Source: Methanobacteriota archaeon
GTDB taxonomy: Archaea; Thermoplasmatota; Thermoplasmata; RBG-16-68-12; SOIM01
Length of the DNA stretch: 47,504 nucleotides
Direction of reading: 5' to 3'
NCBI GenBank assembly: GCA_020345725.1
Contig: CP070767.1
Span: forward strand, 1,782,276-1,829,779
In this document: positions 8,405 to 39,757 of the stretch, in pieces
Position numbering within the stretch: the stretch's first letter is position 1
Layout: each line of letters starts with the position of its first letter
Position numbers and translations under genes: made by a program
The notes under the pieces: generated by a model
Databases searched by the model: none
Told to the model about the DNA's origin: nothing
The model's input: the letters and a program-made list of their open reading frames with translations, nothing else

Positions 8405-11400
8405 CTATTGGATCGACAACGGGTCCAATCGTATCAGGATCAATCTCCCAGTCTTTGTGGTATACGAGCAGTACACGTCATAGTTCACTTCAGTCACTGT
8501 TCCCTTGCTTGCATGGTAGACCTCGTAGACGTTGTGATACATTCCGCCAATCGTCAAGGAATCCGTCATCTGATGACCTTTCGCAAAGGGATCTGCCGTC
8601 AGCTTTGATAAAGATGGGGCCGTTGCGAAGCCATCTATAGAATCATAGGTCCAGAGATTGGGCTCGTTAAACTCGTTAGCGTTCTCGATGTACTGGATCC
8701 AAGTGTACCCATCGTCAGTGCCAACCATATTGAGTATAGGTCTTCTATCATAGTTGGAGTTGGACACCGAAGTGGCAAATGGTCCAGCAGGCAGTGGCTG
8801 TGGGTGTAGATTTGGACTCACACCTTCCAGCTCTGTCAAGTTAAGTCCCCACGGACGATTGAATATTCCAGAGGTCGTATTGTACTCGTAGTGACCGTCC
8901 AGATATCCTACATACAGGCGGAGATCCACTGCGCCCTCGTCATTGGTCACCACGACATACATCCTGTTGCCTGCAGGACCTTCGGTGGTTGCGACACAGG
9001 CGGGCCATTGTATGTTGGTTCCATCCGTGTTCCACAGAAGGGAGACATCGTCTCTGGGATTGATGGGTGTGTCATCTCCCATCCATCTACCATCATCGTA
9101 GAGCCTAACCAACAGGTCTCTGTCATCGCCTGCTGGCAGCCTGTAGTAGAAGAAGACCCAAAGGACATTCCGCGAATCAACACAGGAATTGGGGAAGAAG
9201 TAGTAGTTGTTGTCGAAGGGACTGATTCTCCTGCAGTCATCATCGAGCGGGTCACTACAGTTTCCCCAAGTCTCACCGCTGTCTCTCGAGATGGCTATCC
9301 ATGTTTGGACGGCAATCGGATTGCCTGAATCTGGACCTGTATAGTCCAAATGCTCCCAGACCCAGATGACTTCACCGTCGGTTGTTCCATCATCTCTCCA
9401 ATTGGGAATGTTCATTCTTGCCTCGTTCATTGCCTGGCTTCCCGCATTCCTCTCAATGACAACTCTATGCCAGTTGTCGTACAGGGGTGGATCAGCGTGT
9501 GCTGACACACCGTAGGAATCGTAGTCCGGTAAGAACGCATCCGGGTCATCGCCAGTCCATGTTAAGATTACTCTGAAGGATTTATTCTTTCCTCCAGGCA
9601 TATAAGTCCACCTCAAGTCGTTCGGGTCATCATTCCAGTTGGAAACCAAGGTGTGGTTGAATGGCTGCACTGGCATGCCTTGAGCATCCAATGTCGTGTG
9701 AGCCACATAGACATTCCCTCCTCCAAAGCGTCCAGTTGGATCAACTGGGTTCGTCTTATTGTAAGCGATGAATATGTGGTCCGCAGTGCCGTTGTTGAAG
9801 GTTAAGACCGACTGATCCAATTCATCAACCGGGTCTGTTGTTATTTGAATCGGTGTGACAACTATGTCGCAGGACACGGCAAGCTCCAACTCCAGCCGGT
9901 CCGTGATGGAGGTGTTGCCGTGATATGTTCCAGTTATCTTCAAGTCTTGAATACCACAGGAGGGGAAGGCTTGGTCAACATCTATCGTGACCCAAGTTGA
10001 GACAGTCTCCCGGGGCTCCAAATCAGCGATGAAAGACGATTCGAAGTTCATGGTCATCTGAGCAGGTCCTGCCGCAGACAGGAAGACGTTGTCGGTGTTC
10101 GTACCGAAGTTGGTCACTTCGAACGGGAAGAAGACCTGTCCACCCTTGGTGATTTCGAGGGACGTTGGGTAGTCAGAATCCAAGTCAATCTTGTGCTCGG
10201 TCTGTGGCCCGAAATCAGCGGAAACCACGAGGGCAAAAGGTGCGGTAGACGGGAGACTTCGACCAATGACTTCAACCTGCCAGGTCCCTACTTCAGGGAA
10301 CTGGACTTCCACTTGCTCCACGTTGTTGAGGTCGTCAAAGGCATCGCTGTTGTATCTGTCCCAAAGCGGGTTTGCGTCCGAAGCGATTGGGTTGGGAATT
10401 GACCAGCCGTCAAACTGTCCCACAGTTCCGTAGACATTTCCCTTGTATACGTCTCCGCTTGGGGATGTCACAAGGAGGTCAACATCTCTGAAGAGGTCCC
10501 TGCCCCATCGATCCACCCAAGTCAGTGTTATCTTCAGGGGAACATCGTCGGACTGAACAGAAGTGGTGAATGAGGGGAACCAAGAACCAGGAGTGGCCAT
10601 TGTTCCTTCCTCCCACCTACTGGTTCTAGGAACAGGTGGAAAGAGTGAGTTTATCAGATTGACTCGCCCCCATCCCTGATCGTATCCAGGATACTCATAG
10701 AGGGCCTCATCCATCCTGACCGCGCCGTTGACCATCAGAGCCTTGACCAGCTGGGAGTTGATCGCATAAGGATCGGAGTATCCAGCAATTTCTCGCAGGT
10801 ACTCTCTAACCAACAGTGTCAGCCCCGCCATATGCGGAGAAGCGACTGAGGTTCCGTCCATGTATCTGTAATCATTTATGCCGTCCCCGTCCAGTGCGGT
10901 CGGATTGTTCTGGTTGTAGACATCCACAGTCATGATGAATGAAGGCTGGGGATTATTGATTCCCACCATCAAGTTATGTTCCCATTCACCCGGTCCCATA
11001 GGGGCGATGGATGCTGTTCCCACACTGACCATATCAGGCTTCAATCTGCACAGGCTCTGCCCAGGGCCTCCCCTGCTGCTGAAATCCGCCATAATGTTGG
11101 GGTTGTCTGCCTGGAACCAATCCGGTCGGAAGTTCAAAGAAGCCCCTGCAGTGATACCATTCTTCGCTTGTGATCCAGGACCAAGAGTATTCAAGTCCGG
11201 TCCTTCATTGGAAGCAGCAAACACAACCAACCTGTTGTTCTCTGCGTCCATTCTCATATCGGCCGCAGGTGAAGATCCACCGTAATCCCCGGGGTTCCTG
11301 CCATAGCTGTTGGAATAGACATGGGCACCATCCACATATTGAGAGTCCCAGTACGAGGGGTCAGCGGCTAGCCCACCAAGGCCTTGGACGCCGTCCATTG

Positions 11401-12412
11401 AGAGCATTGCCTCGGGAGCCATGCCCACTCCCTCGGAGTTCTCCCAATTAGCATCATTAGTCGGATAACCGCGAGCATATTCCCAGGCGAATCCATTTCC
11501 AATTGCATCTCCGGCGACGTGGGTTCCATGAGCAGTTCCGCTTTGCATCCCATCGGGATTGGATCGCCCAGTTCTGTCTATATATCTGATAACCCTGTCA
11601 CCGACGGGTCCCAAGAAGAAGTCTGGATGCCCAGCGTCTTGATTACCAACGTCGAAACCTGAATCCTGTATGCCAACGACCTCGTAGATGTCGTCCGGGG
11701 TATAGTCTATGCCATCAGGTCCAGGCGATCTCCCTGTCAAGGAAGATGGCAACCCACTTCGAGCGGGATCCCAAGAGTCGAAAGCTCCCATAATCTCTGC
11801 TGCTACAACATCCTGTACTGTGGATACGCCTGTTCTATGGACTTCCATTACCTCGGGCATAGATACTACCCAAGGAAGAATCCGAGAGTCGAGATAGGCA
11901 ACCACGAAACCAGGAGAATAAGTTGTTATCACACTTGCTCCAAGGTCCACGAGTTTGGAAGAGAGTGAATCCCTCATCGAGTCATCAAAGGCCATAATTT
12001 CTACTCGAAGTCCGCCCTCTGTGTCAAGCACGTCACTTGAGATCTTGTGCCAAGGTTGGTACGCACCTACCCATTGCACGAATGGTTGCTCGCTTACCAT
12101 TGATTTGACGTCCGGGGACATCTTCACGACTGCCGAATATCTCTGAGCAAGTTTGCCAACACTCGCGCCCATGTCCTCGATGGCCACAAGCCAACCAGGC
12201 GTATAGGGTCCGATGAACTGTACTATGTAGCTCTGCCGATCCCAACCGAACCCATCCATTGCGGACGGGGCAGCTGGAACTGCCTCTGTCGTGTCAAAGA
12301 CAACATCATAAGGATACAAATCCAGAGTTCGATAGCTGTCTGAAGGTATGATGTTGAATTCATAAGCCTCCATCGCGACCAGCTCGGATTCTGTCGCCTC
12401 AACGATGTACAT
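8405..12412 (-). CDS. large subtilisin-like (S8) serine protease with C-terminal BNR/Asp-box-containing region; gene apparently disrupted at both ends
   Basis: Canonical S8 triad motifs are present: VVGIQDSGFDVG (Asp), GTAHGTHVAGDAIGNG (His), SNSYG (oxyanion Asn) and GTSVASPHMAGL (Ser). There is one clear Asp-box, SRDSGETW (~9262-9294). There is no signal peptide or RBS at the 12412 ATG. Confidence 0.9.
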   Translation of the reverse strand: MYIVEATESELVAMEAYEFNIIPSDSYRTLDLYPYDVVFDTTEAVPAAPSAMDGFGWDRQSYIVQFIGPYTPGWLVAIEDMGASVGKLAQRYSAVVKMSPDVKSMVSEQPFVQWVGAYQPWHKISSDVLDTEGGLRVEIMAFDDSMRDSLSSKLVDLGASVITTYSPGFVVAYLDSRILPWVVSMPEVMEVHRTGVSTVQDVVAAEIMGAFDSWDPARSGLPSSLTGRSPGPDGIDYTPDDIYEVVGIQDSGFDVGNQDAGHPDFFLGPVGDRVIRYIDRTGRSNPDGMQSGTAHGTHVAGDAIGNGFAWEYARGYPTNDANWENSEGVGMAPEAMLSMDGVQGLGGLAADPSYWDSQYVDGAHVYSNSYGRNPGDYGGSSPAADMRMDAENNRLVVFAASNEGPDLNTLGPGSQAKNGITAGASLNFRPDWFQADNPNIMADFSSRGGPGQSLCRLKPDMVSVGTASIAPMGPGEWEHNLMVGINNPQPSFIMTVDVYNQNNPTALDGDGINDYRYMDGTSVASPHMAGLTLLVREYLREIAGYSDPYAINSQLVKALMVNGAVRMDEALYEYPGYDQGWGRVNLINSLFPPVPRTSRWEEGTMATPGSWFPSFTTSVQSDDVPLKITLTWVDRWGRDLFRDVDLLVTSPSGDVYKGNVYGTVGQFDGWSIPNPIASDANPLWDRYNSDAFDDLNNVEQVEVQFPEVGTWQVEVIGRSLPSTAPFALVVSADFGPQTEHKIDLDSDYPTSLEITKGGQVFFPFEVTNFGTNTDNVFLSAAGPAQMTMNFESSFIADLEPRETVSTWVTIDVDQAFPSCGIQDLKITGTYHGNTSITDRLELELAVSCDIVVTPIQITTDPVDELDQSVLTFNNGTADHIFIAYNKTNPVDPTGRFGGGNVYVAHTTLDAQGMPVQPFNHTLVSNWNDDPNDLRWTYMPGGKNKSFRVILTWTGDDPDAFLPDYDSYGVSAHADPPLYDNWHRVVIERNAGSQAMNEARMNIPNWRDDGTTDGEVIWVWEHLDYTGPDSGNPIAVQTWIAISRDSGETWGNCSDPLDDDCRRISPFDNNYYFFPNSCVDSRNVLWVFFYYRLPAGDDRDLLVRLYDDGRWMGDDTPINPRDDVSLLWNTDGTNIQWPACVATTEGPAGNRMYVVVTNDEGAVDLRLYVGYLDGHYEYNTTSGIFNRPWGLNLTELEGVSPNLHPQPLPAGPFATSVSNSNYDRRPILNMVGTDDGYTWIQYIENANEFNEPNLWTYDSIDGFATAPSLSKLTADPFAKGHQMTDSLTIGGMYHNVYEVYHASKGTVTEVNYDVYCSYTTKTGRLILIRLDPLSIQ

Positions 12413-12750: not shown

Positions 12751-14169
12751 CTAGACAGTCCATTCCATGGGCGGATCTGTAGCGACTCTGTTCCCTGCCA
12801 AATCGTACGCTTCCACGTATGCTTTCACATTGTTTCCTGCGCTCACGGTGATTGTTGCCATCCAAGAATCTCCACTGATTAGAGTCATGGCTTCGCTGCT
12901 CCAAGGTGAGGCGTCTATCTGATAGTGCAGGGTTGCATTGTCCATAAGTATCAGATTGGTGATGTTCGCATACAATTTGGGATTGGCGGGATTGTCATCA
13001 TCTCTGTAGAAGGTCTCAATTGCGGGTACGCTGAAGTAAGGATGGTTCAAAATTGCGAACCCTCTTCCAGAAGCTGAAATGCCCTCAATTATGCCACTGA
13101 TGACAACGGACCCTTCCCAGTGGAATCCGTCCAACTGATTTGAAGAGGAAGTTGACAAAGAGATATGAGTCCCGACTCCGGTCAGATGGAAATCCCATTG
13201 TGAGGGCAGGCAGCGTTCGGTGGAAGGTAGGAATCGTGGATCTACCCAGTACCTGAGAATATCGACCGTGTAGTCGGCAAGTTCCAGCTTGATAATCTGT
13301 TCGTTCGGTTTTGAGTAGTAGGCTATTTCTTTGAAGATACCTCCACTCGTCGGATCGTAGAACCTGAGGATGTGCAATTCGCTCGCAGTGGAGAGATGAA
13401 ACCTGTATTCCTCCATATCGAAAAGAGTCCATCCACCCCAATGATGCTGTATCCAGGCGTATCCATTCACCGTGTGAGTCTGATCTGAGAACTCCAGCGT
13501 TCCAGTGACCGTCAGTCTTGTAATCGAATAACCTCTAATGGTTCCGTACGTTTTGGTCTCGTTCTTCAGTAGAACCGTCCCGTTTTCCCCAAGAAGTATG
13601 GGATCCTTCATGGAAGTCATTTGCACATTTAGATCGTAGACCTCTGCTCCTCCTTTCTCCATTCGCCCTCTATAATCATAGTCAAACCCAGTGGCGTATT
13701 CTCCATTCCAGGTGTCAGTTTCGTATGGTGATACAAAGGTCAGATTGAGCTTTTCGTATCCAATCATGAGACTTCCATCATGCTCAGCAGCGTAAAACTC
13801 CTGTCCCGAGATATTCCCCTCATCTGTCAATGAGGCGAATCTCTTCTGATCGCCGTTCTCATATATTGCATAGTCAACATTTACTGCAAACTTGTCTCCA
13901 CCTAGATTCTGAAGTAGGAAGTCGACCTTCCAGAACTCGTAACTATCATTGTGTTGCCCCTCGTCCCTTGGGAATTCGATCTCAAACTTAGGTGGTGTGA
14001 TTTGATCATCAGGTCCAGGCTGAGTGAGATACAGGCCTGCAAGTGCTGAGGCGAAAACCAGCGCTATGACGATGAAAGCAGCGACGAGAGCCTTCCGCTT
14101 CCTAGCCCTTTCTTCTTCCTTCTTCTTCAACTCGGTATACTTCTTTCCTTTCTTCCCCCGATGAGCCAT
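12751..14169 (-). CDS. membrane-anchored extracellular protein with AttH/CrtC-like lipocalin domain
   Basis: A Lys/Arg-rich N-terminus is followed by one TM helix (ALVAAFIVIALVFASALAGLYL). FPRDEGQHNDSYEFWKVDF and AWIQHHWGGW resemble the AttH/hydroxyneurosporene-synthase-like (PF07143-type) signature as I recall it. Confidence 0.55.
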   Translation of the reverse strand: MAHRGKKGKKYTELKKKEEERARKRKALVAAFIVIALVFASALAGLYLTQPGPDDQITPPKFEIEFPRDEGQHNDSYEFWKVDFLLQNLGGDKFAVNVDYAIYENGDQKRFASLTDEGNISGQEFYAAEHDGSLMIGYEKLNLTFVSPYETDTWNGEYATGFDYDYRGRMEKGGAEVYDLNVQMTSMKDPILLGENGTVLLKNETKTYGTIRGYSITRLTVTGTLEFSDQTHTVNGYAWIQHHWGGWTLFDMEEYRFHLSTASELHILRFYDPTSGGIFKEIAYYSKPNEQIIKLELADYTVDILRYWVDPRFLPSTERCLPSQWDFHLTGVGTHISLSTSSSNQLDGFHWEGSVVISGIIEGISASGRGFAILNHPYFSVPAIETFYRDDDNPANPKLYANITNLILMDNATLHYQIDASPWSSEAMTLISGDSWMATITVSAGNNVKAYVEAYDLAGNRVATDPPMEWTV

Positions 14170-14327
14170 AGTGCACCTTTTTGTGTTATTTTATACGAGT
14201 GTTGCTATATAAGTATTTTCAATGCCTACGAATAGCCAAATCAATACAAATGGCTTTACAACAAAATATAAATAAACGGCGAAACATGACTTTAATTGTC
14301 ATTAATCTGACCTGGAGAGGTTATCCT

Positions 14328-17300
14328 ATGGCAAAGGATGTGAGGAGGCAATTGTGGGGCGCAATTTTGGCTGCGGTCTTGATGGTTTTGATGACGTTCT
14401 CAACTCTTGCAGCCCCCTCGACGCCTTCTATTAGTGAGCTAGAAGAAGATGTAGATACGATTCTTGAGGAGATCACACCAGATATGGAGTCAGAAGATGC
14501 AGAGATCTCCGAGAAGACAATTGGACCCGAAATGACTGATCTTGAATATCCAGACGTGTACTATCCGAGCGGTCTTGAAATGAAGGAACCTCTTGGTGAT
14601 GAGCCTGCTGAGACTCAATCGAATGGGCTATTGGATTATCAAGGTGTTCAAGGTGCATGGGCCCAGGGTGTCAATGGTTCTGGAGTCAACGTAGCCCTGA
14701 TTGATACTGGGATAGACCTTGGACATCCTGACCTTATCGGAACGTACGCGATCGATGAGAGGGTTCTAGGTCAAGTCACGAACGAGGTTGTTGTTCAGGG
14801 AGCTTCAAGTCAAGGCGTAGATGTGGCCAATCTCGCACATGACTATGTCATGAACTATGCAATCAAGAGAAATGGAACGGGTATGACCGAGTTTGCGGAT
14901 TACACTCTATACCCAGGAAACGGAACGATCATCTTCACACCGACCTTGGGGTCCAACATGGAGATAACCGCGGATTACACGTATACCTCTCCGTATTACG
15001 GATGGCCTATTGCTTTTGATCCGGTATCCATGTCCAATTTCCTGGAGCAGAATCACACCAGAGATACCTGGTTTGCGAACACAACCCAGGTCGGCCCAGG
15101 ACCATTTGAGTATTCCCACACTTTGATAGTTGACGGAGAGACTGAATTCGGAGGTACCTACGAGAAATGGGGGACAGACCCACAAGAGAAATCAGCCACA
15201 CTGCCGGGTGGGAACAAGGAAGACTTCGATTTGACCTCATTGAACTTGACCTATGATAAGGATTATTGGTACGTAGGGTTCGATACTTGGATGAGAGTCA
15301 CAACCGAGAACGCGTCTATAGAGGAGTTCGTGCCCCATGCGCTTTTCGGAGTCATGTTCGATGTTGACAACGAAACAGGAGGAACGACAACCGTTCCTGA
15401 AGGAAAGTTGATCGATACTAACACATCACACGGTGATGACGTATTGGATGCTGAGATTAGCCCTGACGGTACAATGGTTGCAACCGCTTCCAGAGATGGA
15501 CTTGTCAGAATTTGGTTCACTTCTAATGCGACCAGGATAAAGACGCTGTATGGCCATGATGCCAGCAATCCACCTTTTTCAGTTGCTTGGTCACCTGACA
15601 GTACCAAGATTGCGAGCCTCTCTGACGACAAATTGTTTGTCTGGAATACTCTTGACTGGGGAAACCCTTGGGGGAAGTCTGCTACAGTCTCTAGCTCAGG
15701 AGATGCACTCGGAGACTACGGAATTTACGGCCTTGCTTCAATACTTGATTTCAGTCCCAACGGAACTACGGTGGCATACGGAGGTAACAATATTGGCGGT
15801 GTATTTAGAAGCGTAGTCAACTTCTACGACTACGCTACTGGCTACAGTTATCACATGGTTCTGAGTGATGGAGCTGAATTCGTCCAGAGTGTCGCATTCA
15901 ATCCTTCAAATGCAGATGAAATTGCGGCAAATGTGATTTTCCATTTTATTCCACCAGGAACCCTCATTGAAAATGACATAGGTATATACGACCTCTCGAC
16001 AGCATCACTCAATACCGGAACTGGCACAACCGTGACCGTCGGAACATACCTGGATGGGCACAGCCCAAATTCGATTGTGAACTCTGTTGCATGGTCCCCA
16101 AATGGACAAAGGCTTGTCTCCGGGAGTGAAGACAATACAGTCAAGGTCTGGTTGTCTGACGGTACCAACATCGCCACAATCAATGTCGGGAAGATAGTCA
16201 CATGTGTGGATTGGTCTCCCTCACCACTCAACAAGATAGTGTATTCCACAGTTAGATCTGGGTCCCCTGCAAGCGCCCTGCTTGCCACAGCCGATGAGAA
16301 TGGCAATCCCATCGACAGTGATTCAATCAGACTCGACTATTACTCGGCGAAGTGGTCACCTCTTGCTGGTGACGACTTGCTAGTCACAGCCTCAGCCGAT
16401 TTCTCCGCCCGACTGTGGTACGATGATTTCACACTTGTCAGAGTGCTCGTAGCCCAGAAACCCGATTACGCTTTGTATGTTGAGGGTGGAGGAAGATGGA
16501 ACCAGAAGGACGAGAAATGGGAACCTGGTTTCAACTCAACCAGATTCTACACATGGAACGACGCAACTGGTTGGACTTATGTTGTCCTCTCCAATCTGAC
16601 CACGGAACAGATAGAGGCAAGCCAGAATTGGGGAGGCTCACAGTTTATAGAAGTCGCGATTCCAAGAAGTCTCCTAGGTAATCCTGTATCAATGGCAGTG
16701 GAAATGTTCTCGGCACCTCACAATGACACTCATCATGCTCAGGACTCCGTCCCCGAGGATCGGAATGTATTCGACATTCCGGAGAGAGGAGCAGAGGCCA
16801 AAAATGGAATAGACTGGCTCCCAATAGTCACCTCCCTGAGCACCTTCACATGGAAAGAAATCAAGTACTACTACACCAACGTTTCCCTATCCAAATCAGG
16901 GGTCTTCCACTTCGGCTTCCATCCCTCACCACACATCATACAGAAGAAGGGAGCGGTTGGCGTTCTAGTGGTGGATTCCAAGAGACCATTCGACTACGAT
17001 ACCGTCTATGTGGATTTGAACATTGACAATGTTTTCGATAGTCAGGATGTCATCTTGACGAGAGATTCTCCCACAGCCACGGTGGATGAGGTTTTGCCTT
17101 TGGATGGGATTCCAGATACCTCTGCCGGGATCATGTACTACATGTCGGACGGATTCACACCGATTCCATATTCTGAGAAATACACCGAGAGGAGACAAGC
17201 GACCGAACAGGACTTCAGGAACGTCATACCTCTGAACGGGGACATGGTTGCTTTCATCGGAGAGTTCTTCATTGACGAGGACACGGGAGAGAAGGCAGAG

Positions 17301-20300
17301 CACGGGACGGCCATGGCTTCGGTAATCGCCGCTCAGGGCGTCATAGGGGCTACGCCGGATGAGAAAATAATGGGTGTTGCACCGGGGGCCAAGTTCATAA
17401 TTCTTGCCAACACAAGGGATGAGATAGAGCACTCCTGGAACTTCGCGGTGGAAGGTTATGACGGCAAGATAGCCACTGGAGATGAAGCCCAGATAATACT
17501 CAATGCGTTCAACTATCCAAGAGTCGTGGAAAAGGGCTGGGATCGCTATTCCAGAAAAGTGGACGAGATGTCGATGGTATATGGCAAGGAAAAGAACATC
17601 TTCGTCGGACCGGCCGGAGATTATGGTTGGGGTTACGGAACAGTTGCCTCACCGAACGCTGCTCCAGGTACCGTAACGGTGGGCAGGGCGAGCGACTTCT
17701 CCTATTGGGCAGGAGGGCTTGAAGGACCGAATCCGCACTATGGTGATGTTGAGATATCCTCTTCGAGAGGACCGACTCCGGTAGGCATTTCCAAGCCAGA
17801 TGTAGTTGCCATTGGCTCAGGAAGAATCGATATTCCGCTCTTCAATAAGATGGTCTCTGATGGTACGACCGCAAAACAACTTGTTCCAACCAAAGGTTCG
17901 GACATCTCGGCAGCATCCGTGACAGGCGTCCTGGCGCTGATATATGAAGCTTACAAATCGAAGCATGGTGTCATCCCCACCGCTACCGAAGCAAAGGAAA
18001 TACTGATGTCCGGAGCGGATGATATCAGCTATGACACGCTATCTCAGGGTGCTGGATTCGTGAATGCCACAAGAAGTGTCTCAATAGCCCTGGGCAATGG
18101 AGGGTTGGCCGTCTCACCATCGACTTTCTCTTACGGTTATTTCCTCGGTAAGAGATATCCATCGTTCGCCAACATTCTCGCTGCTGGGGACACGGATGTC
18201 AAGCAGTTCACGCTTGAGAACAGTGGAAGCACTCCGACGAGTGCAGTTGTGAGCACGACCATCTTCAACAACACTGGGTATTACAATTTCACAACCAACA
18301 ACACTGTGGACACATACGCAACAGATGGAGAGATAATATTCTGGATCAACTCATCTGGAGTGTGGAAGGTAAAGGATGAAGGAATGGGCGTCTATAACGT
18401 AACTAGCCAGGTAACTCCCTACGACGCGAGTCTGTGGAATAACGCAGATTTGGTGAAGATCACTGCCTACAGTTCCTATGAAATGATGGTGAAGCTTGGA
18501 GGCGTTTCTCCCACAGGGCGCAAGACGTACGTCCAGAACTACTCATTCACAATGAAGGTCTATGATTGGAACAATGTCAGTATCGATCCATTCCCGAACC
18601 CTGAGGCATATCCAACAGAGCTCAACACAATAGCAGAGGTGCACAGCGAAGCGAACTACGTATTGGGCGTAGACCCGATGACAAACTACTTTGAGGCAAG
18701 GATTCACGATCCTGCAGCAAGGATTGATGATGGGCTCGTGGTCGTCATAGAGCCTTGGGATGAGAGGCCCGATGAGGATTATACGTGGGAGATCTTGATC
18801 GAGACATATGAGAAGGTCAACTGGCCTTGGCTGAATATCACTCCAATAACACCCATAAACATACCAGCATCAGGACAGGCCACCTTTGACGCGACCATGC
18901 GAGTACCCACGAACGCAATGGTCGGTTCGTACGAAGGAGCCATCACAGTAGCCGATACTGGAAGCGGGAAGAACATCACAATACCCATCCTCGTGAACGT
19001 GGCAATGAACTCACCCAATGTGAGATTCGGAGGGGTCAACGGCACATCAGATCTTTATGACAACAACAGGATCTTCGGAGGATACGAGAAAGGCATGAGG
19101 GGATCTACCAGGCTAGCTAGGCCCTATACTGGCGACTGGAGGTTCTATTACTTCAACATCCCAGATGCCGGATTCTTCAAGAGTGCTGGACTGAAACTGT
19201 GGATAGAGGGAAATTGGACGCTCAAGCCTTCGGACATGGACTTCTACATACTCGGATACAGGGCTCCCAACGAGAACGTGACAAGATACGGGCCATACTA
19301 TCTGGGAGTTCTCGGGAAGAGCGAGGAGGCCAGGGAACCGGGATTCGAAACGAACACCAACGAAAGTTCGGAAGTGATAGCGTTCGATATGAAGACTGGA
19401 ATCAATGTTCTCGCACTGCATGGTGTCATACTCAACGGCAGCAAGCCATTTGAGTTCGTATTTGGTGGAGGCGGAGGATGGATCCAGGTCACTCCTCCGG
19501 AAATCAGAGAACGAAGAAGCGTGAGATACGGGCAGAAAGATCTGAGAATCATTTCCAATATGGACTTCACGGAAGGGATGACAGCTTCGGCTGTTGGTCC
19601 TGCTATAACAGAGAGCTACAGGGAAGTGGAAATCGAGCAAGACTACCAGACCTGGTGGCAGTTCGACAACTGGGGCGAGTACCTGATGAGAGGCAGCTAC
19701 ACCTGGATCATCAATGTCTCCAATGCCTACATCCTGGACGTCCACATAGTCGGAGATGACAAGGCTCCAGATCTGGACTTAGGTGTCTTCACCGATGAGA
19801 ACTTGGACGGAGAGCTGGAACTCGAAGAAGTCAAGGACATCTATTGCGTTAAGATAGGCGGAACGAAATGGGATTACGATGCGGACGCAGATGCTGACGA
19901 AAGGGTAGTTTGGATACAACCTCCAGACGGACAATACATAATCAAGGTCTTAGGATTCGACATTAACGGAAAATTCGGCCATTTCGACATTGACATTGCA
20001 ATCACACTGGGATCAGGAGAGGAAGGATACACCATCGCAGGTACTGGACCTGACGACATCATTATCGGAACAGAAGGAGGGCTCTTGCGTCTCACACCCG
20101 TGGGAGTGACCATGCATTGGAATCTCCAAGGAAGCACGCCACCAGGAGAATATGGAGGAGCGGTGATGATTGGTACACCACAGGCGCCTACCATAGTCAT
20201 CGTACCCGTCACAATAATATACGACCCAGATCCACCAGAGATCATCAGCTTTGCTCTCAGTGCCACCGGATATGAGATCGAGGTGATGACCAATAGAACG

Positions 20301-21632
20301 ACCAATCACCCGCGGCCCACTTTACAGGTGGGTCTGGCGGATCCCACTAGAGGTGAGCTTGATTGGCGAACCATAGGCATATACCTTGACGGAGTGAACA
20401 TCACCTCCCAGTCCCTGATAAGTCTGCCATTTGGAGAATGGGAAGGTAAGTTTGGATATTGGGACGGAACAATCACCTACACTCCACCAGAAAGATTGGT
20501 GAATGGGATCCACACTCTAGATGTCAGAGTTGGAGATTTGACGGGTAATACTATCGATGCAAACTTCACATTTGTCATAGACACGCAACCCCCATTCATA
20601 AATCTCATAGGGCCTTCGATATACTCAACGCGCCAGCCTACAGCGATCGTCAGCGGTCAGACCGAGGCCGAGAAGAACGTCGTGATCAGAGAGCTGGAGC
20701 TGGTGGCAGATGAGAGCGGTTACTTCCAAGCAGAGATAGCGCTGGTAGAGGGAGAGAACCGGATAGATGTGACTGCCATAGACTGGTTCGGAAAGACCGT
20801 TGCAGGGGACATAGTCAGATCGAATCCAAATTCAGTGATACAGACCATCATCTACGATCTGGAGGACCCGGTCCTGACCGGAGTCAGATTCCAGGAAGGC
20901 ACCCTCACAAACCAAGATCATGGCACGTTGGGTGGAACAGTGGAGGAATACATAGCCGAAGGAACCACATACGACCCGAGGACTGTCACTCTGAAGATAA
21001 ACGGAGAAGAAGTGGAAATCCACTATAACGGGATGTTCAGCAGAGTATTGACCCTTAACGAAGGACATAACACCTTCCTCCTGGAGGCAACAGACGCGGC
21101 AGGGAACAGCGTATCAATGTACAAGAACATCACAAGGGACACGGCACCACCGTCCTTAATCCTTGACGAAGTACCATCCTCCACTGAGGATGCTGAAGTG
21201 GTAATCTCTGGAACTGTAGATCCGGGATCGATACTGACAATCAACGGCAAGTTCGTGAGCACGGCAGGCGGGACGTTCGAGGACACGGTGGCGTTGCAGC
21301 CTGGACCCAATGTGATTTACATGGAAGCGGCCGATTCCGCAGACAACGTCAGGAGCTTGCAGGTCGTCATTGTCAGAGAGACGGGAGACATTCTCCCTTA
21401 CATCATAATGGCGGTCCTCATAATAGTGGGACTGCTCCTTGGATACCTAGTCGGGTCGCGGATGAGAAGAGGGGAAATCGAACCCGGCGAGGAAGAGGTT
21501 GAGGAGGAGGTTCTGGCTGAGGAACCTACCGAAGAGGAAGCTGAGGAAGTCCTCGAGGCCGAGGCTCTGGTCGAAGAAGAAGACATGGTCGAAGTAGGAG
21601 CCCAGGAAGAATTGATAGAAGAAGAGGTTTGA
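14328..21632 (+). CDS. giant membrane-anchored subtilase-like surface protein with inserted WD40 propeller and Ig-like domains
   Basis: The start is chosen at ATG 14328 (GGAGAGG 8 nt upstream; signal peptide MAKDVRRQLWGAILAAVLMVLMTFSTLAAP). The track ORF start at 14181 is probably a spurious extension. S8 Asp motif VNVALIDTGIDLGHPDL (14703), His motif AEHGTAMASVIAAQG (17301) and Ser-region GSDISAASVTGVLAL (17895). Seven WD40-like blades lie at ~15421-16430. There are several DxxPP-initiated Ig-like modules. The C-terminus has a TM helix (ILPYIIMAVLIIVGLLLGYLVGS) and a Glu-rich tail. Confidence 0.85.
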   Translation: MAKDVRRQLWGAILAAVLMVLMTFSTLAAPSTPSISELEEDVDTILEEITPDMESEDAEISEKTIGPEMTDLEYPDVYYPSGLEMKEPLGDEPAETQSNGLLDYQGVQGAWAQGVNGSGVNVALIDTGIDLGHPDLIGTYAIDERVLGQVTNEVVVQGASSQGVDVANLAHDYVMNYAIKRNGTGMTEFADYTLYPGNGTIIFTPTLGSNMEITADYTYTSPYYGWPIAFDPVSMSNFLEQNHTRDTWFANTTQVGPGPFEYSHTLIVDGETEFGGTYEKWGTDPQEKSATLPGGNKEDFDLTSLNLTYDKDYWYVGFDTWMRVTTENASIEEFVPHALFGVMFDVDNETGGTTTVPEGKLIDTNTSHGDDVLDAEISPDGTMVATASRDGLVRIWFTSNATRIKTLYGHDASNPPFSVAWSPDSTKIASLSDDKLFVWNTLDWGNPWGKSATVSSSGDALGDYGIYGLASILDFSPNGTTVAYGGNNIGGVFRSVVNFYDYATGYSYHMVLSDGAEFVQSVAFNPSNADEIAANVIFHFIPPGTLIENDIGIYDLSTASLNTGTGTTVTVGTYLDGHSPNSIVNSVAWSPNGQRLVSGSEDNTVKVWLSDGTNIATINVGKIVTCVDWSPSPLNKIVYSTVRSGSPASALLATADENGNPIDSDSIRLDYYSAKWSPLAGDDLLVTASADFSARLWYDDFTLVRVLVAQKPDYALYVEGGGRWNQKDEKWEPGFNSTRFYTWNDATGWTYVVLSNLTTEQIEASQNWGGSQFIEVAIPRSLLGNPVSMAVEMFSAPHNDTHHAQDSVPEDRNVFDIPERGAEAKNGIDWLPIVTSLSTFTWKEIKYYYTNVSLSKSGVFHFGFHPSPHIIQKKGAVGVLVVDSKRPFDYDTVYVDLNIDNVFDSQDVILTRDSPTATVDEVLPLDGIPDTSAGIMYYMSDGFTPIPYSEKYTERRQATEQDFRNVIPLNGDMVAFIGEFFIDEDTGEKAEHGTAMASVIAAQGVIGATPDEKIMGVAPGAKFIILANTRDEIEHSWNFAVEGYDGKIATGDEAQIILNAFNYPRVVEKGWDRYSRKVDEMSMVYGKEKNIFVGPAGDYGWGYGTVASPNAAPGTVTVGRASDFSYWAGGLEGPNPHYGDVEISSSRGPTPVGISKPDVVAIGSGRIDIPLFNKMVSDGTTAKQLVPTKGSDISAASVTGVLALIYEAYKSKHGVIPTATEAKEILMSGADDISYDTLSQGAGFVNATRSVSIALGNGGLAVSPSTFSYGYFLGKRYPSFANILAAGDTDVKQFTLENSGSTPTSAVVSTTIFNNTGYYNFTTNNTVDTYATDGEIIFWINSSGVWKVKDEGMGVYNVTSQVTPYDASLWNNADLVKITAYSSYEMMVKLGGVSPTGRKTYVQNYSFTMKVYDWNNVSIDPFPNPEAYPTELNTIAEVHSEANYVLGVDPMTNYFEARIHDPAARIDDGLVVVIEPWDERPDEDYTWEILIETYEKVNWPWLNITPITPINIPASGQATFDATMRVPTNAMVGSYEGAITVADTGSGKNITIPILVNVAMNSPNVRFGGVNGTSDLYDNNRIFGGYEKGMRGSTRLARPYTGDWRFYYFNIPDAGFFKSAGLKLWIEGNWTLKPSDMDFYILGYRAPNENVTRYGPYYLGVLGKSEEAREPGFETNTNESSEVIAFDMKTGINVLALHGVILNGSKPFEFVFGGGGGWIQVTPPEIRERRSVRYGQKDLRIISNMDFTEGMTASAVGPAITESYREVEIEQDYQTWWQFDNWGEYLMRGSYTWIINVSNAYILDVHIVGDDKAPDLDLGVFTDENLDGELELEEVKDIYCVKIGGTKWDYDADADADERVVWIQPPDGQYIIKVLGFDINGKFGHFDIDIAITLGSGEEGYTIAGTGPDDIIIGTEGGLLRLTPVGVTMHWNLQGSTPPGEYGGAVMIGTPQAPTIVIVPVTIIYDPDPPEIISFALSATGYEIEVMTNRTTNHPRPTLQVGLADPTRGELDWRTIGIYLDGVNITSQSLISLPFGEWEGKFGYWDGTITYTPPERLVNGIHTLDVRVGDLTGNTIDANFTFVIDTQPPFINLIGPSIYSTRQPTAIVSGQTEAEKNVVIRELELVADESGYFQAEIALVEGENRIDVTAIDWFGKTVAGDIVRSNPNSVIQTIIYDLEDPVLTGVRFQEGTLTNQDHGTLGGTVEEYIAEGTTYDPRTVTLKINGEEVEIHYNGMFSRVLTLNEGHNTFLLEATDAAGNSVSMYKNITRDTAPPSLILDEVPSSTEDAEVVISGTVDPGSILTINGKFVSTAGGTFEDTVALQPGPNVIYMEAADSADNVRSLQVVIVRETGDILPYIIMAVLIIVGLLLGYLVGSRMRRGEIEPGEEEVEEEVLAEEPTEEEAEEVLEAEALVEEEDMVEVGAQEELIEEEV

Positions 21633-23399: not shown

Positions 23400-24272
23400 A
23401 TGAAAAGAGCTGCAGTTTACGCCAGAGTTTCTACGGAAGACCAGGCCAAGGAAGGATACTCGCTGGACGCCCAGAAGGACCGGTTGAGAGCATACTGCCA
23501 GGCTAAAGGTTGGGAGATTGCCAGTGAATACATAGACGACGGACATTCTGGAAGAGATACGAAGAGGCCAGCCTATCAAAGAATGCTTGAGGATAAGGAC
23601 GATTGGGACACCATTCTCGTAATCAAAATGGACAGGATCCACAGGAACAGCAAGAACTTCATGGAGATGATGGACGACCTCAAGAGGTGGGGCAAGGAGT
23701 TCTCAAGCATGCAGGAGTCTCTGGACACCAGTACGGCAATGGGCAGATTTGTCATGGATATAATACAGAGGATTGCGCAGCTGGAGAGCGAGCAAATCGG
23801 CGAAAGAGTGTACATGGGGATGAAGCAGAAGGCTTCCACGGTGGGTGGACCGTTGGGAGGTTGTGCACCCTTTGGATATAATCAGCAGGATGGGGAGCTA
23901 GTTATTGACAAAACCAAAGCCGAAAGCGTGAGCCTGATCTTCAGTGAGTATCTGGATGGTCAGACCACCCAGAAAATCGCAGACATGCTGAATTCGAAAG
24001 GAGTCTCCACGAAGAAAGGAAGACCATGGACCAAACAGACAGTTGCTTGGATTCTGAAGAATCCGGTCTACTGCGGTTACATGGAATGGGACAACGTAGT
24101 CAGAAAGGGAGACCATGAGGGAATAATCGACGTCCAGACTTTCAATGAAGTTCAAAAGGAGCTCGTGAGAAGAATAAGAATATCTCCACAGAAATACGAA
24201 CCCAGATTGCTTCCGGATGAGTCAACTTCTATTCAGGAAGAACGTACTGTCGAGACATGCTCGGAAGCTTAG
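23400..24272 (+). CDS. serine recombinase (resolvase/invertase catalytic domain + recombinase domain)
   Basis: N-terminal AAVYARVSTEDQ (nucleophile Ser), then DDGHSGRDTKRPAYQRML, MDRIHRN, and a recombinase-domain block (PFGY...DGQTTQKIADMLNSKGVSTKKGRPWTKQTVAWILKNPVYCG). A TATA-like TTTTTATATT lies at 23356-23365. Confidence 0.9.
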   Translation: MKRAAVYARVSTEDQAKEGYSLDAQKDRLRAYCQAKGWEIASEYIDDGHSGRDTKRPAYQRMLEDKDDWDTILVIKMDRIHRNSKNFMEMMDDLKRWGKEFSSMQESLDTSTAMGRFVMDIIQRIAQLESEQIGERVYMGMKQKASTVGGPLGGCAPFGYNQQDGELVIDKTKAESVSLIFSEYLDGQTTQKIADMLNSKGVSTKKGRPWTKQTVAWILKNPVYCGYMEWDNVVRKGDHEGIIDVQTFNEVQKELVRRIRISPQKYEPRLLPDESTSIQEERTVETCSEA

Positions 24273-34078: not shown

Positions 34079-35131
34079 ATGGCGTTAGATTTCACTTCCA
34101 CCGAGAAGATAGTCCTCTACGGCCTTGTGAAACATCCTACGCTCAATGACAGGCAACTGTCTGAACTAATCGGTGTGAAACCATCCACTACGACTGCCAT
34201 AAGGACACGTCTGAGGCAAAAAGATGTATTCCGCACAAAGCGGATACCAATCGCTCACAAGTTGGGATATGAACTGCTTGTGACCGTCTTTGGAAGTATG
34301 GAGCCTGGAGTGAAGGAGTCCGATAGGAAGAAGTTCTCGAAATGGATACGAGGAATCCCAGGTGTGTTCCTCTCCCTTGAATCATCGAACAGCATGTTCT
34401 TCACTGGCTACTTCAAGAACTTCAGCGAGTACAGGAGTGTTGCTGATGAAGCCTGGGAGAAGTTTGGCGAATCAACTCTATTCCAAACAGATAAGTGGTA
34501 TTGGCCCATGTTCAGCTTCGCAAGAAGCAAACTTGTGAACTTTTTTGACTACTCTTCGCCGCTGAGGTTCGCATTCAAGATAAAGGAGAAAGCAAAGGTT
34601 GAGCGAGAACGTGAGACGCTTTCCAAGGAAAGACTGACCAGAAAAGAGAGAACGGTTCTGCAGGGTCTGATCAACTATCCCGAGATATCTGACAAAGCCG
34701 TTGCCGAGAAGATAGGTGCATCCAGACAGGCCGTTGCGAGTATGAGAAAGAGATTCGAGGAAAAGGGAATCCTCCGTACAATCCGGATTGTGGACATGGA
34801 GAAGGTGGGCTATCAGATATTGGCTGTTGGAAGCATTCATTTTCAACCGAAAGCATCCCTAAATTCCAGGTGGATTGGAGTAGAGAGAACGGTGGAGACC
34901 GTTCCCATGATCCTGAATGTGGCAAGTAGTCCCGAGACAGTTGTGATGAGCTACATGAAGGACTATGAGGAATACCACGCGACCAAGAAGGAAGCATTGG
35001 AGTTCTATGCGAAGAGCGACTTCTACAGGGAGGAGCCTACCAGTTTGATATTCCCACTCTCAGATACTAAGATTACGAAAGATTTCGACTTCTCTAGATT
35101 CATGGAGAGATTCGTTCAAGAAGAAGACTAG
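34079..35131 (+). CDS. double winged-HTH (Lrp/AsnC-like) transcriptional regulator, paralog 2
   Basis: Also exactly 350 aa and collinear with 32890..33942 along the whole length, with long identical runs (VLYGLVKHPTLNDR, IGVKPSTTTAIR, GYFKNFSEYR, IGASRQAV, MRKRFE, FPLSDT, KDFDF). Confidence 0.65.
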   Translation: MALDFTSTEKIVLYGLVKHPTLNDRQLSELIGVKPSTTTAIRTRLRQKDVFRTKRIPIAHKLGYELLVTVFGSMEPGVKESDRKKFSKWIRGIPGVFLSLESSNSMFFTGYFKNFSEYRSVADEAWEKFGESTLFQTDKWYWPMFSFARSKLVNFFDYSSPLRFAFKIKEKAKVERERETLSKERLTRKERTVLQGLINYPEISDKAVAEKIGASRQAVASMRKRFEEKGILRTIRIVDMEKVGYQILAVGSIHFQPKASLNSRWIGVERTVETVPMILNVASSPETVVMSYMKDYEEYHATKKEALEFYAKSDFYREEPTSLIFPLSDTKITKDFDFSRFMERFVQEED

Positions 35132-38100
35132 GATAGCGTGTCGATGACAGAATCCACCTCTCTCTCCAGGAGTTTCAGTTGATTGGAGTCCAGGGTCGCG
35201 GGATTCACGTTCACTATCATCGTGGATTTGTTCATAGCAACCAAATCTCTGACGGACTGTAAAAGCCGAAGAACGATTATGAAGTTGTTGTTTGTGATCA
35301 GGTACTCCAGACCATCAAGTAGAACTACTCCACCAGTATCCGTCACGAATTTCTCCAGAGAGAGGCTGAGCTTCTCAAGATCCTTAGGTCTTACTGACTC
35401 CTCCTTCCCGATGTTGGATAACCATAGCAGGGTGGAATCGCCCATATCATGCATCTCAGTGACCTTATCTGGATATGTCCTTGTCACGCAAAGGCCTGGT
35501 CTGCCAGATTTCACCGTCGTGAGGAACATGTCGAATGCCCTCTCCGCCCTTTCTTCCTTGACCAAGTAGATGTGGGACGTTTCAAGTGCAACCTTCCCGA
35601 TCTCCTCCTCGAACGGTGGGACCTCAATCGCTTCCTCTGCTCCTACTTCGGCTTCGGAAATGGGTTCCTCTTCAGGGGCCTCCGCTTCTTCCTCGGTGAT
35701 GAAGACTGTACCGCACTGAGTACAATGAGTCGCATCTGCATTAGCTGGAGCATTGCAGAGGGGACAGACGAGTTCTTCCAGCCACTCCTCAAAGTAGACA
35801 GATATCTTCCGTGCCAGAGGAACGGTTATGCCCTCAATCTTAAGAAGCTCCTCTTCGGATGTGTTCGCCAGTGTATCCAGATCATAACCCAAGTTATTGA
35901 GCATCCTGGCTTTCTCCAGACCCAACCCGGGGATCTGCATTATCTCTTTCACCGCTTCCGAAATCTCTTCCTCTTCCTCCTTCTCAACCAGAGCAGAACC
36001 GCAACTATCGCATTCCTCAGCATCCAATGGAACCTGTGCTCCGCAACTGGGACACGCCTGCATCTCAGGCAGTAGAGAAGCACCGCAGCGATGACATTCT
36101 GTCGTTCCCATCTCGAGCTCTATCTCGCACACCGGGCACGTCATCTTCTCCTCGGCCCTCAGCTCTTCGGGCTGATCGAAGAATCTCCTAATCTTCCTGG
36201 CCTCGATCTCGTCAATCCCTTCAACTTGAACAAGCTCATCTATTGCCGCTTGCTGCAGTGAAAGTGGGCTGGCGTAACCAGCGTCAAAGAGAGACATTGC
36301 CTCCTTCTCATCTATTCCCGGAATGTTGGTGAATGCATCAATGGTCTGTTTCATGTAGAGCGGAGTGATAGCCAATCCTATGACCTCGCCTTCCACATTC
36401 CATTCCACTATGTACTCCTCAGTGAGCTCTTCCGGCACAAACTCAAAGCTCCTTGACCGAGTCTCAGTGGAAATGTAGTCCTCCCATTCCTCTAGCATCT
36501 TGGTGAGCTCCACCTTGACTTTGACCTGGGTTCTTATGAAATCCTCCACGTCCAGATCTATCTCCTTCCTCATCTGCTGGATTCTTCGCACGATTTCTCT
36601 CGAGAACCCCTCTGCCTTGATTTCTGGGGTTATTTCCATATCGATGTACAGGTCTCCTTGTTCAAAACCGATGCTAACCACATGCTCTGGGAGCCTTTCC
36701 GAGAATTCGACCATATCAGGTTCGATACGTATGACCTGGCCCTCTATGCCTATCTTGTAGACCCCTTTGTCGATGGCCTCTTTGACCTCATCGACGGGGC
36801 GACTTTCCAGCATAGTGGCAATCTTGCTCCACCACTGCTTGTAGACCCGTCCAATTGCTTCCACCTTCGGGCGGACGTTGAGGACCATACCATCCCAAGC
36901 CTCTCCAGGCCAAAGAACCTCGATCTCCTTGCTGTTCGTCTGGTCCATCAGGATTTCTTTCAGAGCCTCGACCGTCTTGGCCGTCTCTTCATCGTTAGCC
37001 TTCAAGACAATCTTCTTCACTGGCCATCGGAGCTTCATTCCCACCTTCTGCCTGGCCTTGGACACGAGCTCCACCAGTTCCTGGACGAGCGTCATTCTTT
37101 GTTCCAGTCTCTTATCTATCAATGACTCATCATAGGACGGCCAATCACACATGTGGACGGATAGCAATTCCGCGTCAAGGGATTGGTACATGGACTCCGA
37201 GATGTGGGGGGTCAGTGGAGCCAACACCTTTGCGATTGTGAGAAGCGATTCGTGCAGTGCCTTGTATGCACCGAACTTCTCTCTGGCATCGCCTTCAATC
37301 CAAGTTCTGTTGCGTATAAGCTTGATGTACCATCTGGATAGATCGTTAAGAATGAATTCTTCTACCGTTCTGCAGGCCTTGTGGATATTGAAGTCTTCAA
37401 TCTCGTTCTCGACCTTTGCCTTCAGTCCCTCTGTCTTCGAGAGCAGCCAATGATCTTCGGGTCTCATGCTTCCCGATAGTGAATCGATGGTCCAACTCGT
37501 GGGGTCGAACCCGTCCATTGCCATGTAGAGGGATCCGAACCTGTGAACATTCCAAAGGATGTTGAGTGTGCGGTTGGATGTACGGACATCCTCTTTGTTG
37601 AAATTCAGGTCTTCCCAGGGTGGATTGGTCTTCAGAAGGTAGAATCGCAGGGAATCCGCCCCGAACTCTTGAATGACATCGAAGGGGTCCACCACATTGC
37701 CGAGACTTTTTGACATGGGCTGACCCTTCAAATCTAGGATCCATCCGTGCATCAGAACGGCCTTGTAGGGAGACTCATCAAATGCAATCGTACCTGCAAC
37801 CAGAAGCGAATAGAACCAGCCTCGTGTCTGATCATGAGCCTCGGTAATCCACCTGCAAGGCCACCATTCCTTGTACTCCTTCTTCTTGGAAGGGTATTCA
37901 AGCTGGGCCCACATGCACACGCCTGAATCGAACCATACGTCCAGAACGTCGGGTGTTCTTCTCATCTCCGCACCGCATTCCTGGCAGTTGAAGGTGACAC
38001 TATCAATCCAGGGGCGGTGAAGGTCCATGTCATCGGTGTAGTTGTTCCCTTTGGAAAGGTCCTTGACCGAACCCACAATCAGTCTCTCCCCGCATTCACA

Positions 38101-39516: not shown

Positions 39517-39607
39517 CGCAATCCTCCCCCTGGAGGTAAACCGGTGAGCCGCGAATTTGTCATCATCGCAACCCAGAGGTAGGACAGCGGTATGCTCAAT
39601 TTGACTT

Positions 39608-39612
39608 AAAAA
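39608..39612 (-). terminator. oligo-T tract downstream of tRNA-His
   Basis: The minus strand reads GGAAAGATTTTTAAG about 19 nt after the tRNA 3' end. Archaeal terminators are typically oligo-T runs. Confidence 0.3.
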
Positions 39613-39630
39613 TCTTTCCGACGATAGGAG

Positions 39631-39735
39631 GGCCGGGACCGAGAATTCCAACGTCATGGTGCGCCCAAGACGATTTTGAACTCGGGTCAAGGGATCCACA
39701 GTCCCTGAGGATAACCCAGCTACCCCACCCCGGCC
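39631..39735 (-). tRNA. tRNA-His (anticodon GTG) with a ~30-nt intron in the T-loop
   Basis: Hand fold of the minus strand.
- Acceptor: G-1 (39735), then GCCGGGG paired with TCCCGGC (39638-39632), and discriminator C73 (39631) opposite G-1.
- D-arm: U8, D-stem GGG/CCT, and a D-loop with A14, G18 G19 and A21.
- Anticodon arm: AGGGA-CTGTGGA-TCCCT, anticodon at 39699-39697.
- Variable loop: TGAC.
- T-arm: T-stem CCGAG (39685-39681) / CTCGG (39643-39639), enclosing 37 nt. These begin TTCAA and contain a stable hairpin, CGTCTTGG-GCGCA-CCATGACG.
The 105-nt gene equals a 75-nt tRNA plus 30 nt. Confidence 0.8.
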
Positions 39736-39757
39736 GCGGGACAAATAACCCCTTCAT

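Follow-up and report, generated by a model that had tools for sequence, protein, structure and literature searches.

Can a subtilase still be a single domain, and still a protease, when several hundred residues, a WD40 propeller among them, lie between its catalytic Asp and His? The question is raised by a gene in a 47,504-nucleotide stretch of archaeal chromosome (contig CP070767.1; "the window" hereafter means this whole stretch), whose host is a Thermoplasmata (Methanomassiliicoccales-related) archaeon. A preliminary description, made from the sequence alone, had proposed that the encoded protein is exported and membrane-anchored, and that its subtilase fold is split by one insertion of about 865 residues. 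We found that the Asp and His regions match complementary parts of one S8 profile, that several domains are nested in the interval between them, and that the Ser nucleophile and the oxyanion Asn have both been replaced by Asp. With moderate confidence, we read the protein as a non-proteolytic, subtilase-derived pseudo-protease on the cell surface, which would serve as a binding scaffold with a remodelled acidic pocket.

The subtilase domain and the domains nested in it

The motifs ALIDTGID and EHGTAMAS place D175 at nucleotide 14703 and H1041 at nucleotide 17301, 866 residues apart with 865 between them, as had been read previously (residues are counted from the start of the open reading frame (ORF) at 14181 and not from the assigned start, M50). 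The translated ORF matches the Pfam model Peptidase_S8 (PF00082) in two stretches (E 3.5e-21; 76.2 bits against a cut-off of 21.8). The N-terminal piece (residues 166-194), scanned alone, matches S8 profile positions 1-31, and the C-terminal piece (residues 1035-1292) matches positions 50-286 of 288. Since these ranges are complementary, the two pieces are parts of one S8 profile and not two partial domains. The N-terminal piece aligns with the region around the catalytic Asp in furin, subtilisin BPN’ and others, and the C-terminal piece with SubHal and KP-43.

An AlphaFold (AF2) model of residues 130-1320 (1191 residues) has a mean predicted local distance difference test score (pLDDT) of 69, with values of 87-95 in the N-terminal S8 piece, mostly 80-98 in the C-terminal half, and medium confidence in the propeller. 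For a canonical relative, P0123 (Asp204, His415, Asn519, Ser598), which has a 211-residue Asp-His insert, AlphaFold gave a predicted TM-score (pTM) of 0.81, with pLDDT of 90-98 over the insert. In Foldseek comparisons the P0123 model superposes on complete subtilisin BPN’ (TM-score 0.79-0.81) and on pro-Tk-subtilisin (TM-score ~0.7); therefore, the split halves make a single S8 fold in this family. From this family result, together with the high confidence of the N-terminal strand, we infer that the two halves also fold jointly in the window protein. The P0123 model additionally matches the propeptide of pro-Tk-subtilisin, and canonical members carry a propeptide. No I9-like propeptide was evident by inspection in the window protein, for which no dedicated Pfam scan of residues 50-129 was made and the best 25 of 39 whole-protein Pfam matches were listed.

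The interval between Asp and His is not the single insertion that had been proposed, but a nested series. Comparison with paralogues and alignment A1 delimits a family-wide Asp-His insert, a beta-sandwich domain within that insert and a WD40 propeller within the sandwich, plus a 73-residue lineage-specific piece (Table 1). In paralogues of the P0118 type the sandwich halves are contiguous: residues 270-417 of the window protein correspond to P0118 204-331, and residues 757-952 to P0118 329-539. Neither the intact P0118 form of the sandwich nor the two window halves joined together gave a Pfam match, and a DOMON- or CBM9-like assignment, which lacked Pfam support, was dropped.

The propeller matches Pfam WD40 (PF00400) in three stretches (E 5.5e-26; 90.3 bits against a cut-off of 27), plus many WD40-propeller family models. 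Its AF2 model contains seven blades of four strands each (A-D). These correspond to the seven WD40-like blades that the preliminary description had placed at 15421-16430, close to the paralogue-derived span. The model superposes on solved seven-bladed WD40 propellers in Foldseek (7bie_A, TM-score 0.85; 5yzv_A, TM-score 0.80 and root-mean-square deviation 3.6 Å), and the predicted structure is that of a closed seven-bladed WD40 propeller.

Active-site substitutions and possible roles of the protein

The earlier picture of a propeller nested in a protease scaffold stands in so far as the subtilase domain is split around the WD40 domain; it does not extend to a competent serine protease, as two substitutions had been overlooked. 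Asp1241 (GSDISAAS) aligns on the catalytic Ser (GGTSMATP) of SubHal and KP-43 in phmmer alignments, and MAFFT alignment with homologues agrees. Asp1147 (PAGDYG) aligns on the oxyanion Asn (AAGNEG; Asn155 in BPN’ numbering), both in pairwise alignments with SubHal and KP-43 and in MAFFT alignment with homologues. Asp175 and His1041 of the Asp-His-Ser triad are thus present, the Ser position is occupied by Asp1241, and the oxyanion Asn is also missing. In alignment A1 the substrate-cleft segment reads SNSFG in canonical members and LNAFNYP in the window protein.

We examined the conservation of these positions in a MAFFT alignment of the window protein and 27 orthologues or paralogues of its own arrangement, which come from Thermoplasmata metagenome-assembled genomes (MAGs) and are 31-84% identical. 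Position 175 is Asp in 24 of 24 sequences and position 1041 is His in 27 of 28, so that the two positions rank among the ~10% most conserved S8 columns. The oxyanion position (1147) holds Asp in 18 members, Asn in seven, Glu in two and Ser in one. The nucleophile position (1241) holds Asp in 16, Glu in five, His in four and Val in one, and is therefore acidic in 21 of 26. Ser occurs there in none of the 26 aligned clade members and at none of the 28 loci of the window arrangement. The clade retains G1239 and a small hydroxyl residue at 1240; several members have Gly or Thr at position 1240, and position 1243 is variable. Judged from these sequences, the evolution of the site does not look like free decay, with a carboxylate apparently preferred in place of the former Ser and the Asp-His pair frozen. 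With its fold seemingly kept and the loss of its nucleophile conserved among orthologues, the protein qualifies on sequence as a candidate subtilase pseudoprotease. In subtilisin geometry, the side chains equivalent to 175, 1041, 1147 and 1241 lie within a few ångströms of each other. Clustered in this way, Asp175, His1041, Asp1147 and Asp1241 would line an acidic pocket in which a cation or basic ligand could bind.

Family members were gathered by word-indexed and exhaustive homologue searches, and loci by a scan of GTDB species representatives. Large S8 proteins, archaeal and in some cases bacterial, with canonical Asp/His/Asn/Ser and an Asp-His spacing of 192-270 make up about 50 of the homologues, so that a long insert between Asp and His is normal for the family. 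In profile comparison, KP-43, SubHal, Tk-SP, Vpr and TPPII are the solved structures closest to them. In the exhaustive search, WD40 lay between Asp and His in ~30 clusters at 50% identity, most of them proteins of 2100-3700 amino acids; the best relative, P0180, is 62% identical over query residues 1-1190. The GTDB scan yielded 69 loci, all from Thermoplasmata, Methanomassiliicoccales or ‘Methanobacteriota’ MAGs and with several paralogues per genome. One of them, L001 from Methanomassiliicoccales archaeon E29_bin30, is the orthologue, with ~84% identity overall.

The window arrangement (N-terminal sandwich half, WD40, C-terminal sandwich half) is shared by 28 loci, and at 13 others the sandwich is intact and the WD40 domain lies further along, between YDTVYVD and SGGMxYFI. 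Both arrangements coexist in the same genomes (L001 with L040, L003 with L037, and L004 with L039). Arrangement and active site go together: Asn and Ser are kept at 13 of 13 loci of the second type, and Ser at none of the first. A divergent canonical S8 gene also lies beside 15 loci with the window arrangement (identity down to 28-32%) and beside none of the Ser-retaining type.

Other insertions occupy the place taken in the window protein by sandwich and propeller. The Thermococcus S8 proteins P0005, P0006 and P0008 (~1880 amino acids) keep the triad and carry an insert of ~230 residues there (VLLVDDDGGD...LWLISDDY), giving an Asp-His spacing of ~446; P0010 has a larger insert and a spacing of 602. 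The Thermoplasmata clade of P0003, P0116 and P0124 bears FN3 arrays at the Asp-His site and has lost both His and Ser. Loci L029, L036, L043, L047 and L054 also fall in this clade of FN3-array or other large-insert proteins, in which one or more of Asp, His and Ser have been lost (for example, the patterns T-DA and S/G). As far as the alignments indicate, the Asp-His insert is a hot spot that accepts different domains in related archaeal proteins, and pseudo-subtilases seem to have arisen repeatedly within this S8 family.

We favour the pseudo-protease reading because the Ser-to-Asp and Asn-to-Asp replacements appear in pairwise and family alignments alike and are conserved in the clade. The head of the protein would be a pyrolysin/TPPII-like subtilase domain whose two halves fold together around a long Asp-His excursion; this excursion would carry the beta-sandwich, with the seven-bladed propeller spliced into one sandwich loop. 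With both the nucleophile and the oxyanion Asn replaced by Asp and no I9-like propeptide evident, such a domain would most likely not cleave peptide bonds as a serine protease. Instead, it could act as a rigid, subtilase-shaped platform on an immunoglobulin (Ig)-like stalk, presenting the propeller and the acidic former active site to extracellular ligands such as proteins, peptides and cations, and it may act jointly with the adjacent canonical subtilase. A role in ligand capture or in a surface layer is plausible; the protein is unlikely to capture substrates in order to cleave them itself.

Several findings weigh against this reading. The near-invariance of Asp175 and His1041, together with the Asp/Glu preference at 1241, resembles a maintained functional site more than a dead one, and would allow for catalysis or metal binding. 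By hydropathy, neither a signal peptide nor a transmembrane segment is recognisable in the canonical subtilase next door, which makes a direct partnership at the surface doubtful. When the full 1191-residue model was compared with PDB and BFVD by Foldseek, the 50 matches listed were solely WD40 propellers, so this comparison gave no readout of S8 packing.

It is unlikely, albeit a possibility that deserves some weight, that the protein is a purely structural, surface-layer-like envelope component in which subtilase and WD40 domains are inert and bind no specific ligand. Its giant size, C-terminal anchor, many sequons and Ig-like stalk would suit such a part, as would the several paralogues per genome. 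However, invariance of Asp175 and His1041 and a preference for Asp or Glu at 1241 would be surprising in an inert spacer, and the conserved presence of a canonical subtilase gene next to this one suggests that the role is more specific.

The main rival, to which we assign a low probability, is that the protein is still an enzyme, in which Asp175, His1041 and the Asp or Glu at 1241, with Asp1147, form a new catalytic centre (with a carboxylate as nucleophile or general base) or a metal centre, and the propeller delivers substrate. Asp-His-Asp triads of haloalkane dehalogenases and epoxide hydrolases offer a model for such chemistry. The conservation of the Asp-His pair speaks for it, as do the retained G1239 and small hydroxyl residue at 1240, and the Asp/Glu exchange at 1241 suggests selection for a carboxylate. 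Against it stand the four clade members with His and the one with Val at 1241, the LNAFNYP cleft and the want of an evident I9-like propeptide; moreover, we know of no subtilase with a carboxylate nucleophile. At the lower end of that already low probability, we would put a wholesale conversion of the subtilisin active site, on the cell surface, into a metal site or carboxylate triad built from the invariant Asp-His pair, the carboxylate in place of Ser and the second Asp in the oxyanion hole, with substrate or ligand fed to it by the WD40 domain.

An ordinary serine protease concealed by an alignment artefact is effectively excluded. Ser residues stand one before and two after the aligned position in GSDISAAS, so that S1240 or S1243 might serve and the Ser-to-Asp call might be an alignment artefact. 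Yet three independent alignments (phmmer with SubHal and KP-43, MAFFT A1, and MAFFT of the 28 clade members) put Asp in the Ser column with no gap nearby, neither neighbouring Ser is constant in the clade, and the oxyanion Asn is replaced too. Least credible of all, and effectively excluded as well, is that the Asp motif and the His/Ser region are unrelated partial domains or an assembly chimera: nothing beyond the unusual spacing favours this, and it is contradicted by the complementary profile coordinates, by the same order of parts at 28 loci of independent MAGs and in ~30 clusters at 50% identity, and by canonical relatives that model as one S8 fold.

These proteins provide a natural case of three-level nesting, with a WD40 propeller in a beta-sandwich in a subtilase Asp-His insert. 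They also offer a natural experiment in pseudoenzyme evolution, since one paralogue type keeps Ser and Asn and the other swaps them for carboxylates while freezing Asp and His. The alternatives for the remodelled site (dead, ligand- or metal-binding, or new chemistry) are directly testable. The family adds giant surface proteins to Thermoplasmata, a group that is known almost only from metagenomes and whose cell envelope is poorly understood. Our literature searches found no paper on WD40 nested in a subtilase or on this Thermoplasmata family, and nothing relevant on propeller insertions or on Asp44/His264 of TPPII. This sizeable, lineage-wide family of giant Thermoplasmata surface proteins is thus apparently undescribed.

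Gene layout and genomic neighbourhood

The gene lies in an uninterrupted ORF (14181..21632, plus strand). Its start was assigned to M50 (MAKDVRRQLWG...) because the orthologues at L001, L003 and L004 begin aligning there. Hydropathy shows a hydrophobic stretch at the N-terminus and a single strong C-terminal transmembrane segment, followed by an acidic tail, in keeping with the exported and anchored appearance noted earlier. A 70-residue acidic, low-complexity linker (31% Asp+Glu) separates the signal peptide from the start of S8; along the whole chain there are 35 NxS/T sequons and two cysteines. Such a layout points to a type-I anchored surface protein of an archaeal cell, presumably exported and glycosylated. 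An hhalign comparison of family alignments A3 and A4 (probability 100) listed a C-terminal block.

Table 1. Features of the putative pseudo-subtilase gene and its two neighbours in the window.
Feature	Coordinates	Strand	Evidence
Whole gene; 2434-residue type-I membrane-anchored surface protein (predicted)	14328..21632	+	Single ORF; start M50 from orthologue N-termini
Signal-peptide-like N-terminus, MAKDVRRQLWGAILAAVLMVLMTFSTLAA	14328..14414	+	Hydropathy segment 8-32
S8 N-terminal piece (residues 149-195); catalytic Asp175 at 14703..14705	14625..14765	+	Pfam S8 positions 1-31; furin and subtilisin alignments; pLDDT 87-95; D in 24/24 relatives
Lineage-specific extra segment of 73 residues (196-268), also in P0003; fold uncertain	14766..14984	+	Alignment A1 columns 340-417; low pLDDT
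Family-wide segment including SPYYGWPIAFDP (residues 269-330) and N-terminal half of beta-sandwich (residues 331-417)	14985..15431	+	Aligns to P0118 204-331, contiguous there with the other half
Seven-bladed WD40 propeller (residues 418-756) in beta-sandwich loop	15432..16448	+	Pfam WD40; AF2 strand sets; Foldseek; paralogue-derived boundaries
C-terminal half of beta-sandwich (residues 757-850)	16449..16730	+	Residues 757-952 align to P0118 329-539
Linker (residues 851-905)			Low confidence
Distal part of family-wide Asp-His insert (residues 906-1030; motifs FHFGFHPS, YDTVYVD, SAGIMYYM)	16896..17270	+	Kept throughout the family, even where Asp and His are just ~200 residues apart; pLDDT 80-92
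S8 C-terminal part (residues 1031-1310); His1041 at 17301..17303, Asp1147 at 17619..17621, Asp1241 at 17901..17903	17271..18110	+	Pfam S8 positions 50-286; alignment to SubHal and KP-43; family alignments
C-terminal domains common to canonical family members (motifs LYDN..FGGY, GDWRFYYF, DLDLGVF)	18111..20210	+	Alignment A1; hhalign A3 against A4
Stalk of Ig-like domains (Big_13, three Glucodextran_B-like)	20211..21377	+	Pfam
Transmembrane anchor (residues 2400-2429) and acidic cytoplasmic tail of ~54 residues	21378..21629	+	Hydropathy and sequence
Canonical subtilase, 1335 residues, D/H/N/S intact, most like KP-43/SubHal; divergent and upstream	8405..12412	-	Pfam; PDB alignment; hydropathy; synteny
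CrtC/lipocalin-like protein with N-terminal transmembrane anchor, between the two subtilase genes	12751..14169	-	Pfam; transmembrane hydropathy

The CrtC/lipocalin-like gene is present at L001, L003, L004, L017, L021 and L022, which are from closer genomes. The divergent intergenic region (14170..14327) is AT-rich and contains the TATA-like elements TTTATA, CTATATAAG and AATATAAATAAA; it probably serves both the pseudo-subtilase and the CrtC-like gene.

By Pfam, genes for FGAM synthase, HMG-CoA reductase and an isoleucyl-tRNA synthetase fusion also lie in the window. Directly downstream of the HMG-CoA reductase gene is a large serine recombinase with Resolvase and Recombinase domains (23400..24272, plus strand), which is found at the same place in L001-L004 and is therefore not a recent insertion. 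The isoleucyl-tRNA-synthetase-like protein (35128..39744, minus strand; 1538 amino acids) is an unusual fusion, with C-terminal helix-hairpin-helix motifs, a double zinc ribbon and DUF835. Beyond it lies a gene for a highly charged protein of 1968 amino acids (39794..45700, minus strand; 21% Asp+Glu, 15% Lys+Arg), which has a CARDB domain and neither signal peptide nor transmembrane segment. Scans of the window for tandem repeats, tRNAs and Rfam families were empty, with no tRNA gene in the window.

Comparison with known systems

The S8 fold, Asp-His inserts (TPPII), nested domains (PA-domain subtilases) and pseudo-subtilases (Csp) are already known. The apparent novelty lies in the threefold nesting, in the use of two independent WD40 sites, and in the replacement of Ser by a carboxylate with Asp and His frozen.

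In sequence and fold, the S8 core is matched best by KP-43 (1WMD), SubHal (5FAX), Tk-SP (3AFG) and Vpr (8JMW), subtilases noted for stability to heat and oxidation. Unlike the window protein, these and pyrolysin are active, have propeptides, and carry neither a propeller between Asp and His nor an Asp at the nucleophile position. KP-43, SubHal, Tk-SP, Vpr, pyrolysin and TPPII have been placed in the pyrolysin group of S8A, of which large multidomain extracellular proteases of Archaea and Bacteria are typical (PMC9549277). The comparison with TPPII drawn in the preliminary description was apt in this respect, with profile relatives in the same group and a family norm of ~200 residues between Asp and His.

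Like the window protein, TPPII (MEROPS S08.090; PDB 3LXU) has a large insert between the catalytic Asp and His (866 residues in our case) and a long C-terminal extension. The TPPII insert is ~200 amino acids long. The structure 3LXU is matched by the family profile (E 1e-22) and by the P0123 model (E 1.8e-12, Foldseek rank 22). However, TPPII is cytosolic, forms giant spindle assemblies, retains Asp/His/Asn/Ser, and has neither WD40 nor beta-sandwich in its insert. The profile match to 3LXU starts only ~20 positions before His, with no similarity detected in the insert beyond; homology between the basal Asp-His insert and that of TPPII could not be established by profile or Foldseek, and only the position is shared.

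Subtilases with a PA domain (C5a peptidase, lactocepin and plant SBTs) provide a precedent for a whole domain nested in the S8 domain of envelope-anchored proteins, and C5a peptidase is among the weaker matches. In these proteins the nested domain sits between His and Ser and not between Asp and His, and unlike the window protein they are active enzymes. The prolyl oligopeptidase/DPP-IV family and the tricorn protease of Thermoplasma combine a seven-bladed propeller with a peptidase, and the propeller selects access to the active site. They may serve as a functional model for the Ser-keeping sister paralogues (P0118 type), although their catalytic folds are alpha/beta-hydrolase or S41-like and their propellers are non-WD40 and not nested in the catalytic domain; the window protein, in turn, lacks the nucleophile.

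Csp pseudoproteases CspC and CspA of Clostridioides difficile have a subtilase fold with an incomplete triad, act as ligand sensors, and are encoded with an active paralogue, CspB (PMC7200643; PMC12880746). They are soluble bacterial spore proteins of ordinary size, without nested domains and with other substitutions, and no close relationship to the archaeal family was detected. CspC and CspA together with CspB are the nearest functional precedent; a canonical S8 neighbour is also conserved beside the putative archaeal pseudo-subtilase.

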